Shown here one piece after another: positions 3,798 through 54,121 of a stretch of DNA of 64,000 nt. The DNA lies in the NCBI RefSeq assembly GCF_058153355.1, contig NZ_CM177019.1; one strand, 5' to 3'. A program made the position numbers and the translations under genes. Every line of letters starts with the position of its first letter. Position 1 is the first letter of the stretch. The notes beneath the pieces were generated by a model that saw only the letters and a list, made by a program, of their open reading frames with translations, did no database searches and had not been told where the DNA came from.

Positions 3798-4664
<867 letters not shown>

Positions 4665-6032
4665 TTAATCGCAGGCAACGATCTTCATCGCCAGGCCACC
4701 ACGAGAGGTTTCGCGGTACTTGGCATTCATATCTTTACCTGTTTCGTACATGGTTTCGATAACTTTATCGAGGCAGACACGAGGTTCGCTGGTACGGCGT
4801 AGCGCCATACGTGCAGCGTTCACCGCTTTTACTGCCGCAATGGCGTTACGCTCAATGCACGGTACCTGAACTTGTCCAGCAACCGGGTCACAAGTCAGAC
4901 CGAGGTTGTGTTCCATGGCGATTTCCGCCGCGATGCACACCTGCGCCGGGCTTGCGCCTAACAGTTCTGCCAGACCAGCTGCCGCCATAGAGCACGCCAC
5001 GCCAACTTCACCCTGGCAACCCACTTCGGCACCAGAAATCGAGGCGTTCATCTTATAAAGAGAACCAATCGCGCTTGCTACCAGCAGGTAACGAGCCAGT
5101 GAGTTAGCGTTCACTTCGCGGATAAACTTGTCGTAGTACGCCAGCACTGCCGGGATAATCCCGCACGCACCGTTAGTCGGCGCAGTCACCACGCGACCGC
5201 CCGCAGCGTTCTCTTCGTTCACTGCCAGCGCAAACATGTTGATCCAGTCAACAACTGCCATCGGATCAGTGGTGGTTTTATCCTGGCTAACCAGCATCCG
5301 GCGCAGTGCCGCAGCGCGGCGTGGAACGCGCAGTTTGCCTGGCAACACGCCTTCGGTGGCAATACCGCGCTCAATACCGCCACGCATTACTTCCCAGACG
5401 TTCGCCAGGTGCTGTTCCAGTTCTTCTTTGCTGTGCAGCGCCAGCTCGTTTTTCATCATCAGACCAGAGAGTGACAGCCCGGTCTCCTGACAATGTTTTT
5501 GAAGATCGGCAGCGGAACTGTACGGATAAGGAACTTCAACCGGTGCGCTATCCTGCTGGCCAAAATGTTCTTCATCAACGATAAAGCCACCGCCGATAGA
5601 GTAGTAAGTCTGGCTGTAAACGACTTTATCGCCCGCCAGCGCGGTAATGCGCATGCCGTTTTCATGCAGAGAAAGGTTATCGGCATGGAAGTTCATGCAC
5701 TGATCAACCGGGAACTCCACTTCGTGCTGACCGTTTGCCAACATCAGGCGACCATGAGTATTCACATCCTGAATAAAACCAGGGATGGAATCGATATCCA
5801 CGGTATCCGGCAGGTTACCCGCCAGACCCATAATTATGGCGATATCTGTGTGGTGGCCTTTACCGGTCAGAGAGAGCGAGCCGTACACGTCAACCACCAC
5901 GCGGGTCACGTCTTTAAGCAGGTTACGGGCAATCAGATCGTCGGTAAATTGCTTACCCGCTTTCATTGGTCCAACGGTATGAGAACTGGAAGGGCCAATG
6001 CCGATTTTGAAAATATCGAATACGCTAATCAT
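4665..6032 (-). CDS. sdaB: L-serine dehydratase 2
   Basis: 455-aa ORF recognised as SdaB (Fe-S L-serine deaminase). Confidence 0.95.
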   Translation of the reverse strand: MISVFDIFKIGIGPSSSHTVGPMKAGKQFTDDLIARNLLKDVTRVVVDVYGSLSLTGKGHHTDIAIIMGLAGNLPDTVDIDSIPGFIQDVNTHGRLMLANGQHEVEFPVDQCMNFHADNLSLHENGMRITALAGDKVVYSQTYYSIGGGFIVDEEHFGQQDSAPVEVPYPYSSAADLQKHCQETGLSLSGLMMKNELALHSKEELEQHLANVWEVMRGGIERGIATEGVLPGKLRVPRRAAALRRMLVSQDKTTTDPMAVVDWINMFALAVNEENAAGGRVVTAPTNGACGIIPAVLAYYDKFIREVNANSLARYLLVASAIGSLYKMNASISGAEVGCQGEVGVACSMAAAGLAELLGASPAQVCIAAEIAMEHNLGLTCDPVAGQVQVPCIERNAIAAVKAVNAARMALRRTSEPRVCLDKVIETMYETGKDMNAKYRETSRGGLAMKIVACD

Positions 6033-6089
6033 AGGAAATACATCGCGTTAAAACGGAGGAAGCGCCGCCCGAAAGCGGCGCGAAAGGAC

Positions 6090-7379
6090 TTAGCTGAACA
6101 GAGAGTAGAAGATTGCGGAGATTGCAATCAGACCCATCACGACAACGAATACGTTGCTGATGTGACCGCTGTACTTACGCATTGCCGGTACTTTCTGGAT
6201 TGCGTACATCGGCATCAGGAACAGGATCATCGCGATGATTGGGCCGCCCAGGGTTTCAATCATACCCAGGATGCTCGGGTTCAGGGTGGCAACAATCCAG
6301 GTCGTTACCAGCATGAACAGCGCAGTGATACGGTTCAGCTTGTTGATTTCGATAGACTTACCTTTACCACGCAGAGATTTAATCACCATACCGTTGAAGC
6401 CTTCACGTGCACCCAGGTAGTGGCCGAGGAAGGATTTGGTGATAGCGATAATCGCGATAATCGGAGCCATCCACGCGATGATCGGCGCGTTAAAGTGGTT
6501 AGCCAGGTAAGACAGAATAGAGATGTTCTGCTCTTTAGCCGCAGCCAGGTCTGCCGGAGTCAGGCTCAGTACGCAGCTGAAGACGAAGAACATTACGGTC
6601 AGCACCATCATGATGTGTGCGAATGCCAGGATCTTCGAGCATTTCTGTTCTGCCATATCGCCGTACTCTTCACGCTTCGCAACGGCGAAAGAAGAGATGA
6701 TCGGAGAGTGGTTGAACGAGAACACCATGACCGGAATCGCCAGCCACAGGGTCATCCACAGACCGTTGCCGGTTGCCGATGCAGTGTCCAGAGACAGCGT
6801 TTCCAGTGCTGCGCCGTTCCACTGAGGGATCAGGTACAGAGCCAGCAGCATCAGTACACCAACAAACGGGAATACCAGAATACTCATCGCCTTCACGATC
6901 ATCTGCTCACCGAAGCGAACAATGGTCATCATACCCACAATCAGGATCAGAGACAGAATCGCACGCGGCGGCGGCGTCATACCCAGCTGGTGAGACATGA
7001 AGCTTTCAACCGTGTTGGTGATTGCCACACTGTAAACCAGCAGGATCGGGTAGATAGCAAAGAAGTAGAGCAGGGTAATCAGTTTACCTGCACCAATACC
7101 AAAGTGTTCTTCTACAACCTCGGTGATGTCTTCGCCTGGGTTTTTACCAGACAGTACGAAGCGAGTCAGGCCGCGGTGAGCAAAAAACGTCATCGGGAAC
7201 GCAAGGATAGCCATGATGATCAGCGGGATCATACCGCCAACACCGGCGTTGATTGGCAGGAACAGCACGCCCGCGCCGATTGCCGTGCCGTAAAGGCCCA
7301 GCATCCACATGGTGTCTGTCTTGCGCCATGCACTACGTGAGTCTTTCGACACAATCGTGCTGGTTTGAGTCGTTTCCAT
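6090..7379 (-). CDS. sdaC: serine:H+ symporter
   Basis: ORF 6090-7382 (MMETTQT...); 429-aa polytopic transporter recognised as SdaC, upstream of sdaB on the same strand. Confidence 0.93.
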
Positions 7380-7935
7380 CAATTTCTCCTGGAGGAATGC
7401 AAATAATTCAGCTTTTAGCCAGTTCAGCCCGGGAAGGTGCCTGACCGTAAAAATGAAATCTGTCTATCGGCGATGGCTTAATCATTTTCCGCCGTAATAA
7501 TTTGAGGGCGGAAAGATACACACAAGTTATGTATCTATCAGTGATCTTGATCTCAAATACAATAATCTACTTGGAAGATAGATAATCTCAACGCTTTACT
7601 CTGTAAATCAAAAGTAAAAGAGAATTTAAGGGCAATATTTGCCCATTAAACGACATCTGACCTCTTCCGGGGCGCGCAATATATGTAGGTTGAGCTGAAA
7701 AAATCAATACTTTTAGTGAATAATGTGGATAATTTATTTTTCATAGCGATAAAATGTGGTTTGTGAAAACAGGGAAACGTTTGCGTTGCAATATAAATTG
7801 TATGACATATTAACTGTGATGATATTTATCGCGTGAGGATGGTAAGAAACATTTATATAACAAATGAAATGAATTGATGAGTAAGTAACCAAAAACGAGA
7901 AAACCCGGCAACAAACGTCACCGGGGAAGGGGAGA

Positions 7936-16207: not shown

Positions 16208-17548
16208 ATGAGTTTTCAATTTACGACGCCTGTTGTTACTGAAATGCAGGTCATCCCGGTGGCGGGCCATGACAGTATGCTGATGAATCTGAGTGGTGCA
16301 CACGCACCGTTCTTCACGCGTAATATTGTGATTATCAAAGATAATTCTGGTCACACTGGCGTAGGGGAAATTCCCGGCGGCGAGAAAATCCGTAAAACGC
16401 TGGAAGATGCAATTCCGCTGGTGGTGGGTAAAACGCTGGGTGAATACAAAAACGTTCTGACGCTGGTGCGTAATACATTTGCCGATCGTGATGCCGGCGG
16501 GCGCGGTTTGCAGACATTTGATTTGCGGACCACTATTCATGTGGTTACTGGGATAGAAGCGGCAATGCTGGATCTGCTGGGGCAGCATCTGGGGGTTAAC
16601 GTGGCATCGCTGCTGGGCGATGGTCAACAGCGTAGCGAAGTCGAAATGCTCGGTTATCTGTTCTTCGTCGGTAATCGCAAAGCCACACCGCTGCCGTATC
16701 AAAGCCAGCCGGATGACTCATGCGACTGGTATCGCCTGCGTCACGAAGAAGCGATGACGTCGGATGCGGTGGTGCGCCTGGCGGAAGCGGCATATGAAAA
16801 ATATGGCTTCAACGATTTCAAACTGAAGGGCGGTGTACTGGCCGGAGAAGAAGAAGCCGAATCTATTGTGGCACTGGCGCAACGCTTCCCGCAGGCGCGT
16901 ATTACCCTCGATCCTAACGGTGCCTGGTCGCTGAACGAAGCGATTAAAATCGGTAAATACCTGAAAGGTTCGCTGGCTTATGCAGAAGATCCGTGTGGTG
17001 CGGAGCAAGGTTTCTCCGGGCGTGAAGTGATGGCAGAGTTCCGTCGCGCGACTGGCCTGCCGACCGCAACCAATATGATCGCCACCGACTGGCGGCAGAT
17101 GGGCCATACGCTCTCGTTACAATCCGTTGATATCCCGCTGGCGGATCCGCATTTCTGGACGATGCAAGGTTCGGTACGTGTGGCGCAAATGTGCCATGAA
17201 TTTGGCCTGACCTGGGGGTCACACTCTAACAACCACTTCGATATTTCCCTGGCGATGTTTACCCATGTAGCCGCTGCTGCACCGGGTAAAATTACTGCTA
17301 TTGATACGCACTGGATCTGGCAGGAAGGCAATCAGCGTCTGACCAAAGAACCGTTTGAGATCAAAGGCGGGCTGGTACAGGTGCCGCAAAAACCAGGATT
17401 GGGCGTAGAAATCGATATGGATCAGGTGATGAAAGCCCACGAGCTGTATCAGAAACACGGGCTTGGCGCGCGTGACGATGCAATGGGAATGCAGTATCTG
17501 ATTCCTGGCTGGACGTTCGATAACAAGCGTCCGTGCATGGTGCGTTAA
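16208..17548 (+). CDS. gudD: D-glucarate dehydratase
   Basis: ORF 16184-17548 trimmed to the Met at 16208 ([10 protein letters not shown]...); enolase-superfamily sequence. Confidence 0.92.
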
Positions 17549-37658: not shown

Positions 37659-37764
37659 AGGTCTCTAGTAATTGCAGTAAGAAATAACATGGAAAGCAGT
37701 GGTGTTGTGTGAGAGTAATCACGCTTCTGCTTTTTAAAATTATTTGACAATTCGAATATCACAC

Positions 37765-37780
37765 TGTGATTACGATCACA
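37765..37780. promoter_or_regulatory. CRP-type site TGTGA-N6-TCACA in the yqcE/ygcW divergent promoter region
   Basis: Perfect match to both CRP half-sites with 6-bp spacer (TGTGATTACGATCACA), overlapping a second palindrome ATCACACTGTGAT. Confidence 0.55.
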
Positions 37781-49869: not shown

Positions 49870-50604
49870 ATGTCCAAACTCGATCTAAATGCCCTGAACG
49901 AACTGCCGAAGGTAGATCGCATTCTGGCGCTGGCGGAAACTAACGCCGAGCTTGAAAAACTGGATGCTGAAGGCCGCGTTGCCTGGGCGCTGGATAATCT
50001 GCCCGGTGAATATGTGCTTTCTTCCAGCTTCGGTATCCAGGCGGCGGTTAGCCTGCATCTGGTGAATCAGATTCGCCCGGATATTCCGGTGATCCTCACC
50101 GATACCGGTTATCTGTTTCCGGAAACCTACCGCTTTATTGACGAGTTAACGGACAAACTCAAGCTCAACCTGAAAGTGTACCGCGCTACCGAAAGCGCCG
50201 CCTGGCAGGAAGCACGCTACGGCAAACTGTGGGAGCAGGGCGTTGAAGGCATTGAAAAGTACAACGATATCAACAAAGTCGAACCGATGAACCGGGCGCT
50301 GAAAGAACTGAACGCACAAACGTGGTTTGCTGGCCTGCGCCGTGAACAATCCGGCAGCCGCGCTAATTTACCGGTGTTGGCAATTCAGCGTGGCGTATTT
50401 AAAGTGCTGCCGATTATCGACTGGGATAACCGAACTATTTATCAGTATCTGCAAAAACATGGCCTGAAATATCACCCATTATGGGACGAAGGATATTTAT
50501 CGGTTGGTGATACCCATACAACCCGTAAATGGGAACCTGGTATGGCGGAAGAAGAAACGCGTTTCTTTGGCTTAAAAAGGGAATGTGGGCTGCACGAAGG
50601 GTAA
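49870..50604 (+). CDS. cysH: phosphoadenosine phosphosulfate reductase
   Basis: ORF 49708-50604 trimmed to [10 protein letters not shown]... (244 aa) with GAGGAA Shine-Dalgarno. Confidence 0.95.
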
Positions 50605-50868
50605 ATATTGCCGGATAAAATAAACGCCTCTGTCAGAAATGATGGGGGCGTTTTTATTTTGCGAGCCGCATTCCGGCATTTAAACGTGAATATAGCAGGG
50701 GAAATCAACAGTTATAGAATGGCGTCGGGTGCTTGAGGCTGTCTGGTGTTGAGCATTCGCGAGGTTCCAGATGGACAAAAGCCCCAGGCGATATATCTAT
50801 CAACCTGAGGCTTACGTTCGAACCCAAACAATTCGAATGTTAGTCTCTTCTTTGCAGGGAGGCAAGAC

Positions 50869-51021
50869 ATGCTGACAAAATATGCCCTTGTGGCAATCAT
50901 CGTACTGTGTTGTACAGTACTGGGATTCACGCTGATGGTAGGCGACTCGTTGTGTGAGTTGAGTATCAGAGAACGTGGTATGGAGTTTAAGGCAGTTCTC
51001 GCTTACGAACCGAAGAAGTAG
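50869..51021 (+). CDS. hokX: Hok/Gef-family small membrane toxin (50 aa)
   Basis: Not in the ORF track (under 60 aa). Translation [50 protein letters not shown] shows the Hok pattern (N-terminal TM helix, conserved LCE...R..G..E..A...AYE). Followed by GC hairpin CGCGGGGGTAAAACCCCGCG and a T-run. Locus name from my recollection of hokX/sokX between cysH and cas3 in K-12. Confidence 0.7.
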
Positions 51022-51259
51022 CCACCACGCGGGGGTAAAACCCCGCGTATTGAATTGTGATGGTTTGGTCTCCTGCACCCTTTTTTTCATTTATATTGTT
51101 TTTGTGAATATTATGCCTGTGTTTATTATTTATATATATCACAGATGAAAATCATTGAATTATTCATAATGTAAATATTTTATTGAACGATATATATCAC
51201 AGATAATTTTTAATATATGCGTAAATATCCTTTAAGTTTTACTGAAGGATAAAAACATT

Positions 51260-52911
51260 GTGACTTTCTTTGATTTCTGGGGAAAAACCCGACGTGGCGA
51301 GAAAGAGGGTGGCGACGATTATCACCTTCTTTGCTGGCATTCGCTGGATGTAGCCGCGATAGGCTATTTAATGGTCAAAAACAACTGTTTCGGGCTGGCT
51401 GACTATTTTCGTCAATTAGGTTTCGCTGACACGGATCAGGCAGCACAATTTTTCGCCTGGTTGTTGTGCTGGCACGATACTGGAAAATTTGCCCGCTCAT
51501 TTCAGCAACTTTACCTGCACCCACAACTCAAGGTTCCGGAAGGCGCAAGAAAGAATTACGAAAAGATCTCTCATTCAACGCTGGGTTACTGGTTGTGGCA
51601 TCATTATTTAATTGAATGTGAAGAGTTGCTTCCTTCATCTTCACTCTCTTTGCGCAAACTTAAACGGGTAATAGATATGTGGATGCCCGTGACGACCGGG
51701 CATCATGGTCGGCCTCCTGACCGTATCGATGAACTGGACAACTTTCTACCTGAAGACAAAGCTGCCGCACGAGATTTTCTCCTTGAAATCAAGGTACTGT
51801 TTCCGCTCATCGAGATCCCTACATTCTGGGATGATGACGAGGGCGTTGAACTTATAAAACATCTTTCCTGGTATATATCTGCAACCGTCGTACTCGCAGA
51901 CTGGACGGGATCGTCAACGCGGTTTTTTCCACGCGTCGCACATGTAATGGATATTAAAGATTACTGGCAGAATGCTTTAGCTCAGGCTCAAAACGCATTA
52001 ACCGTCTTTCCTCCAAAAGCAGAAACCGCACCTTTCACTGGAATTAACACGCTGTTTCCTTTTATTGAGAACCCAACACCGTTACAGCAAAAGGTGCTGG
52101 ATCTGGATATCAGCCAGCCAGGACCGCAGTTGTTTATTCTGGAAGATGTGACTGGCGCAGGTAAAACAGAAGCGGCGCTTATCTTGGCGCACAGGTTGAT
52201 GTCTGCGGGGAAAGCACAGGGTTTGTTTTTTGGCCTGCCAACAATGGCAACGGCCAATGCCATGTACGATAGGCTGGTAAAAACCTAGCTTGCTTTCTAT
52301 TCGCCACAATCCCGCCCCAGCCTGGTGCTGGCACACAGCGCTCGTTCGCTAATGGATCGCTTTAACGCATCGCTGTGGTCTGGTGATTTTGTGGGGTCAG
52401 AAGAACCGGATGAACAAGCGTTCAGTCAGGGATGTGCGGCCTGGTTTGCTGACAGTAACAAGAAGGCGTTGCTGGCTGAAATTGGCGTCGGCACGCTGGA
52501 TCAGGCGATGATGGCGGTGATGCCGTTCAAACATAATAATCTGCGGCTTCTGGGGCTGAGTAACAAAATCCTGCTAGCCGATGAGATCCACGCCTGTGAC
52601 GCTTATATGTCGTGCATTCTTGAAGGGCTGATCGAGCGGCAGGCGCGTGGCGGAAACAGCGTTATTTTGCTTTCTGCTACGTTGTCTCAACAGCAGCGTG
52701 ACAAACTCGTCGCCGCCTTTGCGCGTGGTGCAGAGGGCCAGCAAGAAGCTCCGTTGCTGGAAAAAGATGATTATCCCTGGCTGACGCATGTCACGAAATC
52801 CGATGTGCATTCGCACCGGGTAGCGACGCGCAAAGACGTTGAGCGCAGCGTGAGTGTGGGTTGGCTTCATAGCGAACAAGAGTGTATTGCGCGTATCGAA
52901 TCGGCGGTAAG
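51260..52911 (+). pseudogene. cas3: cas3 remnant (type I-E HD nuclease/helicase), in-frame TAG at 52286-52288 and 3' truncated at about codon 550
   Basis: Track ORFs 51260-52288 and 52325-52936 are in the same frame, separated by one amber codon; HD motif region (LLCWHSLDVAAIGY...HDTGKF) and Walker A (DVTGAGKTEA) present; reading frame runs directly into CRISPR repeat 1. Confidence 0.85.
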
Positions 52912-53083: not shown

Positions 53084-54121
53084 TCATGACGCCTTCGCCA
53101 GTTCCTTCACTAGCGGTAGCATTATCCGCATAACGTCACGGCAGCGACGTTCTATTCTTCCAGGAAGCGCCTTATCAATATGCTGTTGATTATCAAGCCT
53201 TACATCATGCCAGCTATTTCCCGCCGGGAAGGCCGGTGTTTTTGCGCGTTGCTGATAACCATCCTTATTTCCAAGATTCCAGTTGGTCGCCTCCACCGAA
53301 AGTACCGCAATACCGGCTTTGTCGAAAACTTCTGCATCGTTACAACACCCAGTGCCTTTCGGATAGTTTTTATTCAAACCTGGATTTGTTGTCGCTGCAA
53401 TCCCATGATTATGCGCAATTGCCAGCGCTCGATCACGGGTTAATTTCCTGACAGCCTCTGGTGTATTTACACCACTATTAAAATACAATTTATCGCCAAC
53501 AATTAAGTTATCGAGATTAATCACCAGCAGCGTATTTTTCTTTTCAGTATCGCTCATGCGCTTGAGTAAATTCTCAGCGCCTAATTTCCCTTCTTCTTCT
53601 CCACTGGTTGCCACAAAACGAATACCATACTCGGTAGGCGTATTTTTCAGACGTTCAGCCAGTTCCAGCATGACACCTAAACCTGCGGCGTTATCATCCA
53701 TTCCTTGTAATGTCAGCCCGCCGAGATTGGCATCGGCGTCGGCATCGCTCAGTGGAGCGTACGTATCAAGATGCGCCATAATAATGATCTGCTGCGGCGC
53801 TTTGCCTTCATGAGCGGCAATCACCGTACTTCCCGTCACGTTGTGCCAGTTTTTGCGGTTATCGCGGGCGGTGTAAATATATCGGCTATTAAATGTCCGA
53901 ATATCACTGCGATAACCCATCTGTTGAAACTGTTGGCGAATATAATCGGCAGATAACATTTCTGCAGGAGTTCCGGTCATGCGTCCCGGAAAGAAAGTAG
54001 CAATATGTCGTGCCTGTGTATTAGCAAAATCACCAGGTTTAGGTGACGAGGCGTGTACGGGGAGAATAAAGCATACGCCGAGCGCCAGGGCAGCGGTACG
54101 GTGGCGCAATGCGGAAAACAT
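53084..54121 (-). CDS. iap: alkaline phosphatase isozyme conversion aminopeptidase
   Basis: 345-aa ORF with signal peptide, recognised as Iap (M28 peptidase). Confidence 0.92.
   Translation of the reverse strand: MFSALRHRTAALALGVCFILPVHASSPKPGDFANTQARHIATFFPGRMTGTPAEMLSADYIRQQFQQMGYRSDIRTFNSRYIYTARDNRKNWHNVTGSTVIAAHEGKAPQQIIIMAHLDTYAPLSDADADANLGGLTLQGMDDNAAGLGVMLELAERLKNTPTEYGIRFVATSGEEEGKLGAENLLKRMSDTEKKNTLLVINLDNLIVGDKLYFNSGVNTPEAVRKLTRDRALAIAHNHGIAATTNPGLNKNYPKGTGCCNDAEVFDKAGIAVLSVEATNWNLGNKDGYQQRAKTPAFPAGNSWHDVRLDNQQHIDKALPGRIERRCRDVMRIMLPLVKELAKAS

Follow-up and report, generated by a model that had tools for sequence, protein, structure and literature searches.

The spacer studied here lies between a hok toxin gene and a type I-E cas3 gene in a 64-kb stretch of DNA (the window), in the gene order cysJ-cysI-cysH (cysH ends at position 50604), hok, AT-rich spacer, cas3 (Table 1). 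Homology to E. coli genomes that do not have this variant of cas3, called E1, stops at about position 51086 (in such genomes the matches, to hok only, cover 51020-51086), and we therefore take this point as the left edge of the cas3-linked spacer and the sequence from 51087 onward as part of the cas3 module. The G+C content of the 170-bp spacer (51090-51259) is 19%, versus 45-55% in its flanks, a composition like that of H-NS targets.

The cas3 gene of the window is a remnant. Its reading frame is broken at position 52288, and homology to the full-length cas3 of strain EC42405 ends at 52911, where the remnant abuts a CRISPR repeat. The residual array that begins there has three repeats (GTGTTCCCCGCGCCAGCGGGGATAAACCG, a spacer, GAGTTCCCCGCGCTAGCGGGAATAAACCG, another spacer and a degenerate repeat) and is followed by iap, cysD, cysN and cysC. 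The genes casA-E, cas1 and cas2 are deleted in the window strain, and the same junction between cas3 and CRISPR is not covered in any complete E. coli genome of our collection. Judged from the sequence, cas3 and the whole cas operon are defunct in this strain, and because casA-cas2 are deleted and cas3 is both truncated and broken, any regulatory role of the repeat described below would be vestigial here.

Two exact copies of the 15-mer ATATATATCACAGAT, a distal and a proximal one with respect to cas3, occur in the spacer with a start-to-start spacing of 58 bp. The initial annotation had reported a 14-bp exact direct repeat (51133-51146 and 51191-51204) in the AT-rich DNA between hok and cas3. 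Both its location and its identity were confirmed, the flanking genes being recognizable by their HOK_GEF and Cas3_HD domains, and one further identical base on the 5' side extends the repeat to 15 bp. The bases flanking the two copies are unlike each other (T/G on the left and G/A on the right, distal/proximal). Half of the motif is a low-complexity (AT)4 run, and it also contains a TCACA half-site and the mini-palindrome TATC-ACA-GATA. Allowing up to two mismatches, the 64-kb window has no further copy; at three mismatches the sole additional match is an unrelated site at position 7851. We found no inverted-repeat partner of note for the 15-mer. A known RNA element was rejected as an identity for the repeat: an Rfam scan of positions 50550-51350 placed no RNA family over either copy, and returned sok, which lies upstream of them, and a sub-threshold match at the cysH terminator. 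Between the two copies there is a perfect 11-bp palindrome that is not conserved in W46-type or O157-type alleles.

Table 1. Features of the interval between cysH and iap, with their positions in the window.
Feature	Position	Strand	Remarks
sok/leader region	50727-50884		Rfam sok, 111.5 bits
hok toxin gene	50869-51021	+	Pfam HOK_GEF
Fast-evolving distal block of the cas-E1-linked intergenic region	51087-51186	+	holds the distal copy
Distal 15-mer copy	51132-51146	+	lineage-specific; perfect only in the allele group of the window
Palindrome TGAAT-T-ATTCA	51156-51166		between the repeat copies
Conserved proximal block, candidate core promoter and 5' leader of cas3	51187-51259	+	73 bp; holds the proximal copy
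Proximal 15-mer copy	51190-51204	+	conserved
-10-like GATAAT	51202-51207		in the proximal block
Polymorphic T-run	51237-51240		in the proximal block
Shine-Dalgarno-like AAGGA	51245-51249		in the proximal block
cas3 remnant, type I-E 'E1' variant	51260-52911	+	GTG start; Cas3_HD, E = 2.6e-32
Residual CRISPR array	from 52912		three repeats, the last degenerate
iap	53084-54121	-	

In PGAP annotations, E1-type cas3 starts at an ATG equivalent to position 51217 of the window, and many alleles are labelled 'frameshifted'. The T-run downstream of this ATG is TTT in some alleles and TTTT in others, and it is the TTTT alleles that are called 'frameshifted' by PGAP. In EC42405, whose spacer is identical to that of the window, a GTG at the position equivalent to 51260 opens an intact ORF of 885 amino acids. 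This GTG is preceded by AAGGA, and the spacing to a conserved WGK motif also fits it: Cas3 homologues from other species start 4-10 residues before WGK, a distance that is 6 residues from the GTG and 20 from the ATG. Because of the T-run variation, the ORF in EC42405, the AAGGA sequence and the WGK spacing, we take the GTG at 51260 as the start of cas3. Counted from this start, the proximal copy occupies -70 to -56, and the distal copy -128 to -114. At least some of the 'frameshifted cas3' calls may be artefacts of the doubtful upstream ATG start and not signs of real inactivation, as seen in one strain (EC42405; L001, positions 4198-6898).

Upstream of the spacer, the cysH-hok intergenic/sok region (50605-50868) is unusually divergent, with about 90% identity to other E. 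coli alleles and 96% to EC42405. From hok through the first 300 nt of cas3 the window and EC42405 are 100% identical, and over the next 290 nt they are 99% identical, so we place a recombination breakpoint near the start of hok. In several strains (MN06021, STEC308 and Z0117EC0005) a copy of IS421, an IS4-family element, lies across the stop-codon region of hok, equivalent to about 51007-51032 of the window. The insertion replaces about 25 bp (~51007-51031), and homology resumes at the GGGGTAAAACCCC stem.

The two copies among E. coli genomes

We compared the spacer with 5,426 complete E. coli genomes. It was found in about 2,770 of them, in every case on the chromosome, with a median of one occurrence per genome (range 1-2). 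A dispersed repeat or the end of a mobile element (REP/BIME, IS end or MITE) was rejected on the grounds of this median and because there are no further copies in the window or in 8 kb of the strain with the identical spacer.

The two halves of the spacer differ greatly in conservation. Using equal 55-bp queries in an identical search mode, we found the context of the proximal copy (51176-51230) in 2,774 genomes, with identities of at least 99% in 409, 95-99% in 624, 90-95% in 1,740 and 80-90% in one; the best match is thus at least 90% identical in 2,773 of the 2,774. The context of the distal copy (51112-51166) was found in 1,107 genomes, with identities of at least 99% in only six, 95-99% (about 96%) in nine, 90-95% in 83 and 80-90% in 1,009. 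In the remaining spacer-bearing genomes, about 1,660 in number, the distal region is too diverged for detection by a 55-bp query. A perfect distal copy is present in six of the 5,426 genomes (~0.1%). These six come from different hosts and countries and differ in the state of their cas3 genes, so a sequencing artefact is not the explanation, and the perfect repeat represents a genuine allele.

Alignment of individual alleles gave the same picture. The proximal 15-mer is the same in 13 of 14 aligned alleles, the exception being MN06021 with a single A>G substitution. At least seven states occur at the distal site, and 2-6 of its 15 positions differ from the motif in every allele examined outside the group of the window. 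It reads ATATATATCACAGAT in the window, EC42405, 2013C-4282 and WL297; ATATATATCACCAAT in Z0117 and 24A16; ATATATATTACGGAT in W46, 98224 and Ecol_316; ATATATATTATGGAT in MN06021; ATATATTTTATAGAT in LHM10-1; ATATGTTTTATAGAT in VE-T9; and TATGAATTTCAAAT in O157:H7, strain 124, C5 and STEC308 (in short form, the readings among relatives include TTACGGAT, TTATAGAT, CACCAAT and TTTCAAAT). Even Z0117 and 24A16, which are 97% identical to the window over the spacer, do not have the perfect pair, and no 14/15 intermediate at the distal site was seen among the 5,426 genomes. A search of the whole spacer of O157-type alleles for a second site like the 15-mer gave at best 9-10/15 matching positions, the background level.

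These differences extend over whole blocks. Between the window and O157-type alleles the distal block is 75-78% identical, the proximal block 93% and the cas3 coding sequence 89%; for W46-type alleles the identity of the distal block is 91%. Across alleles, identity is 89-94% in the cas3 coding sequence and 93-100% in the proximal block. The upstream region of E1-type cas3, which is present in roughly half of complete E. coli genomes, therefore consists of two parts: a proximal block of 73 bp that is conserved, and a distal block that is hypervariable. This population comparison is the decisive evidence on the repeat pair. The initial annotation had itself pointed to absence or variation in close relatives as the observation that would count against a functional repeat, and such variation is what we see at the distal copy.

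We also searched for outgroups and for the motif in other species. A scan of contigs with a degenerate cas3 N-terminal pattern yielded five stretches, four of which come from unrelated MAGs and are probably chance matches. The fifth, NZ_CALSBS010000035.1, is labelled Pseudocitrobacter vendiensis and is 94% identical to the window over 3.7 kb (cysI-cysH-hok-cas3), with cysI and cysH 95-100% identical. Because of this identity, which includes cysI and cysH, we regard it as another E. coli-type allele and not as an outgroup. Identity to the window is 100% in the proximal block of this contig and 76% in the distal block, so the spacer is a mosaic. The sequence is too close to belong to a different genus, which suggests either E. 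coli DNA in the assembly, by contamination or mis-binning, or a very recent transfer. In the true orthologues from other species that we found by protein search (Cas3 67% identical, cysI and cysH about 81% identical at the DNA level), the spacers are AT-rich but cannot be aligned, and the motif is absent. It is likewise absent upstream of cas3 in S. bongori and upstream of a 53%-identical homologue.

Interpretation of the repeat

How unlikely the repeat is depends on the frame in which it is judged. In 5,000 dinucleotide-preserving shuffles of the 170-bp spacer, in which we scored the longest exact non-overlapping direct repeat, repeats of at least 14 bp appeared in 0.12% and repeats of at least 15 bp in 0.02% (P ~ 2e-4). 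To account for the look-elsewhere effect, we also shuffled the whole 64-kb window in 200-bp blocks, which keeps local composition, and counted exact repeats within 120 bp of each other; at least one was present in 4.3% of the shuffled windows for 14-mers and in 2.3% for 15-mers. By simple extrapolation from these window shuffles, about two such repeats would be expected by chance in a 5-Mb genome. The statement in the initial annotation that the repeat is unlikely by chance is thus correct for the spacer itself, but the significance per window is only modest (0.02-0.04). The (AT)4 half of the motif, being of low complexity, also makes a chance match easier. Apart from the 15-mer, the window has a single closely spaced pair of exact direct repeats of 12 bp or more, GTAAAACGCTGG at 16392-16439 (two copies 36 bp apart), which is within chance, with 0.53 expected per shuffled window.

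The core promoter and 5' leader of E1-type cas3 are most probably contained in the conserved 73-bp block, which is the place to look for the promoter of this gene. Two promoter scans, one of them with a weight matrix, gave several weak candidates. In the weight-matrix scan, which covered five alleles, a single hexamer pair was shared by all of them, namely TTTATT-17-GATAAT, whose -10 hexamer overlaps the proximal copy; O157-type alleles additionally carry CTGATA-18-TAAAAT. The TTTATT-17-GATAAT pair has a moderate score, and the candidate placement depends on weak consensus matches that occur here at background frequency and are common in such DNA (2 found, 1.9 expected). Because the proximal copy lies within the conserved block, it is plausible that this copy, by itself, forms part of the cas3 promoter region. 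The initial annotation's assignment of the repeat to a cas3 promoter may accordingly stand for the proximal copy, but it does not carry over to the pair, whose distal member is variable. A literature search found no mapped transcription start, footprint or binding data for the upstream region of E1-type cas3.

Matching the copies by eye to the Fur, ArgR and CRP consensus sequences gave only a CRP right half-site and weak partial matches, as expected at 19% G+C. The right half, TCACA, is perfect in both copies. At the left half-site the window has AACGA in the proximal copy, O157-type alleles have GCTGA in theirs, and the distal copy has ATTTA; the locus in the window has no TGA-N6-TCACA match. 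The proximal copy of O157-type alleles, CTGA-TATATA-TCACA, matches the CRP core TGTGA-N6-TCACA at 8 of 10 positions and is centred 29.5 bp upstream of an AAATAT hexamer, a placement that corresponds to class II geometry. Elsewhere in the window, the CRP-core-like sequence TGA-N6-TCACA occurs six times compared with 1.6 expected, in two clusters: three matches in 37708-37780, including the palindromic TGATTACGATCACA, and three in 1524-1794.

We think it probable that the two 15-mers are not a functional pair and that the perfect repeat is a neutral, lineage-specific coincidence. The proximal 15-mer would fill the promoter spacer and the first bases of the GATAAT -10 element or, alternatively, would provide the -35 hexamer and spacer of the alternative promoter seen in O157-type alleles. 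The distal copy would have arisen in the least constrained and fastest-diverging part of a very AT-rich spacer, probably bound by H-NS, where in one minor allele lineage ordinary substitutions and changes in the length of AT runs could have turned a weak resemblance (9-13 of 15 positions) into a perfect match. The variable positions of the distal site are simple polymorphisms common to other alleles, with only a T>C change at the ninth base restricted to the window and Z0117 lineages, so single stepwise substitutions together with recombination among alleles are sufficient to produce it. The distal copy is therefore most likely a derived or accidental look-alike; it lies in a hypervariable block, is confined to a rare allele lineage and precedes a cas3 gene that is defunct. 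Since cas3 in the window strain is a dead remnant, the repeat regulates nothing of consequence there.

Some observations speak against coincidence. The local P value of 2e-4 is low, and the value of 0.02 per window is itself non-negligible evidence against pure chance. No 14/15 intermediate was seen, and the nearest allele, of the Z0117 type, differs by an adjacent CA>AG change that could be one templated event. A templated micro-conversion, in which during replication or repair a nascent strand at a distal quasi-repeat used the proximal copy 58 bp away as its template, or else a short gene-conversion patch, would have converted a 13/15 match into a perfect one with no function attached. We consider such an origin rather unlikely. 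It would account for the missing single-step intermediate and for the local improbability of the exact match, and at the two adjacent distal bases where Z0117 and 24A16 differ from the window (CCAAT versus CAGAT) both changes would give identity to the proximal copy; in W46-type alleles there are two differences close by, and these too would be resolved in favour of the proximal sequence. This logic is post hoc, however, because in a perfect repeat of chance origin every change would likewise seem to go 'toward' the match. The distal positions are polymorphic in other alleles as well, so that recombination and single substitutions explain the pattern equally well, and the identity ends sharply at 15 bp between flanks that are unrelated.

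The initial annotation had proposed that the copies are paired sites for a regulator. On this reading they would bind one protein (H-NS, LeuO or a specific regulator such as CRP), and the lineage of the window would have gained a second site that altered the silencing or activation of cas3. The 19% G+C spacer is the kind of DNA that H-NS binds, the proximal copy is conserved, and in O157-type alleles that copy has the 8/10 match to the CRP core at class II distance from AAATAT. Regulation of this kind is reported for related genes, as H-NS silencing of cas3 in S. Typhi (in the passage of PMC8039139 that cites it) and as CRP activation of cas3 in K-12 (PMC7019758). We nevertheless find the proposal distinctly improbable. 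The distal site lacks conservation, the perfect pair being present in 0.1% of genomes; a spacing of 58 bp, at 10.5 bp per turn, amounts to 5.5 helical turns and would leave the sites facing opposite sides of the helix, a poor arrangement for cooperative binding. As a CRP site, the distal copy is without a left half-site, and the proximal copy of the window has only CGA there. No copy of the 15-mer is present upstream of casA in EC42405 (8 kb checked), the motif is absent upstream of cas3 in the true orthologues from other species and in K-12, and in the window strain there is no working cas3 or cas operon to regulate.

A combination of the two preceding proposals, in which the distal 15-mer is a recent templated copy of a core-promoter or regulator element of cas3, derived from the proximal element 58 bp away and having a measurable effect on cas3 in strains like EC42405, has in our view only a slim chance of being correct. 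These strains have retained an intact cas3 with its GTG start, directly followed by a casA gene. If it were true, the templated distal copy would be a natural example of how regulatory sites or spurious promoters are seeded in H-NS-silenced AT-rich DNA. Scarcely credible is the remnant of a small duplication that the initial annotation had also suggested, that is, a decayed tandem duplication of a ~58-bp unit upstream of cas3 with the 15-mers as its best-preserved remains: the spacing is regular and the two units also share GTAAATAT (offset 50) and TTTTAYTGAASG (offset 59), but outside the 15-mer the remaining 43 bp of each unit show no more similarity than shuffled sequences do (global alignment score 3.0 versus -1.6 +/- 3.2, P = 0.13), an old event should have left its best piece in all alleles when O157-type alleles show no second copy above background, and a recent event should have left more than 15 bp identical.

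If neutral coincidence is the right explanation, the importance of the repeat is small, and its lesson is that short exact repeats in very AT-rich intergenic DNA may look 'significant' locally and yet be accidents of one lineage. Comparison across a population settles such questions about repeats quickly.

Comparison with known systems

The spacer of the window is IG4, the intergenic region that Almendros et al. 2014 (mBio, PMC3903273) always found together with the prevalent cas-E1 variant of the type I-E locus in E. coli. It lies between hok/sok downstream of cysH and an E1-type cas3, and it is found only in genomes with this cas3 variant. The cas3E1-R primer listed in the same source (PMC3903273) matches the 5' end of W46-type cas3. 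The part of that paper concerned with IG4 treats the region as a marker of module exchange; internal repeats, promoters and the unequal conservation of the two halves are not described in that part (PMC3903273).

K-12 has the other variant, E2 with IG5, as given in the same account (Almendros et al. 2014, PMC3903273), and its cas3 promoter is reported to be bound and activated by CRP (Yang et al. 2020, Viruses, PMC7019758). Upstream of cas3, K-12 is like the window in that the region lies directly before a type I-E cas3 between cysH and iap and has hok/sok-derived sequence upstream, but in K-12 hok ends abruptly right after its ATG, and the stretch of about 100 bp in front of cas3 is unrelated to the spacer of the window. 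There is only a short TATATCAC..TAATT resemblance between the two, which may be due to chance. Because the upstream regions are unrelated, H-NS and LeuO footprints from K-12, whose Pcas promoter is under H-NS/LeuO control, do not carry over to the window, and regulatory data from K-12 are not transferable to E1 strains. About 80 nt upstream of the cas3 ATG, K-12 MG1655 (L016, 1780-1815, minus strand) has the sequence TGTATATCACTGTAATTCGATATTTATG, which is loosely like TATATATCACAGATAATTTTTAATATATG at the proximal copy of the window (about 21 of 30 positions, with one gap); this may be an AT-rich chance match or a shared promoter element.

For cas3 of Salmonella Typhi, silencing by H-NS has been reported (Medina-Aparicio et al. 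2017, cited in a passage of PMC8039139). This system is similar to E1 in being a type I-E cas3 that is independently transcribed and, in the same passage, described as H-NS-silenced (PMC8039139), but S. enterica Cas3 is only ~42% identical to the Cas3 of the window over the HD region, and its gene is described as divergent from the cas operon. A further comparison is with the chance repeats and quasi-repeats of AT-rich, horizontally acquired intergenic DNA. The repeat in the window shares with them its short exact match, its (AT)4 half, its confinement to one allele lineage and its unrelated flanks, and differs from them in that its 15 bp stand at the long end of what our shuffles produced.
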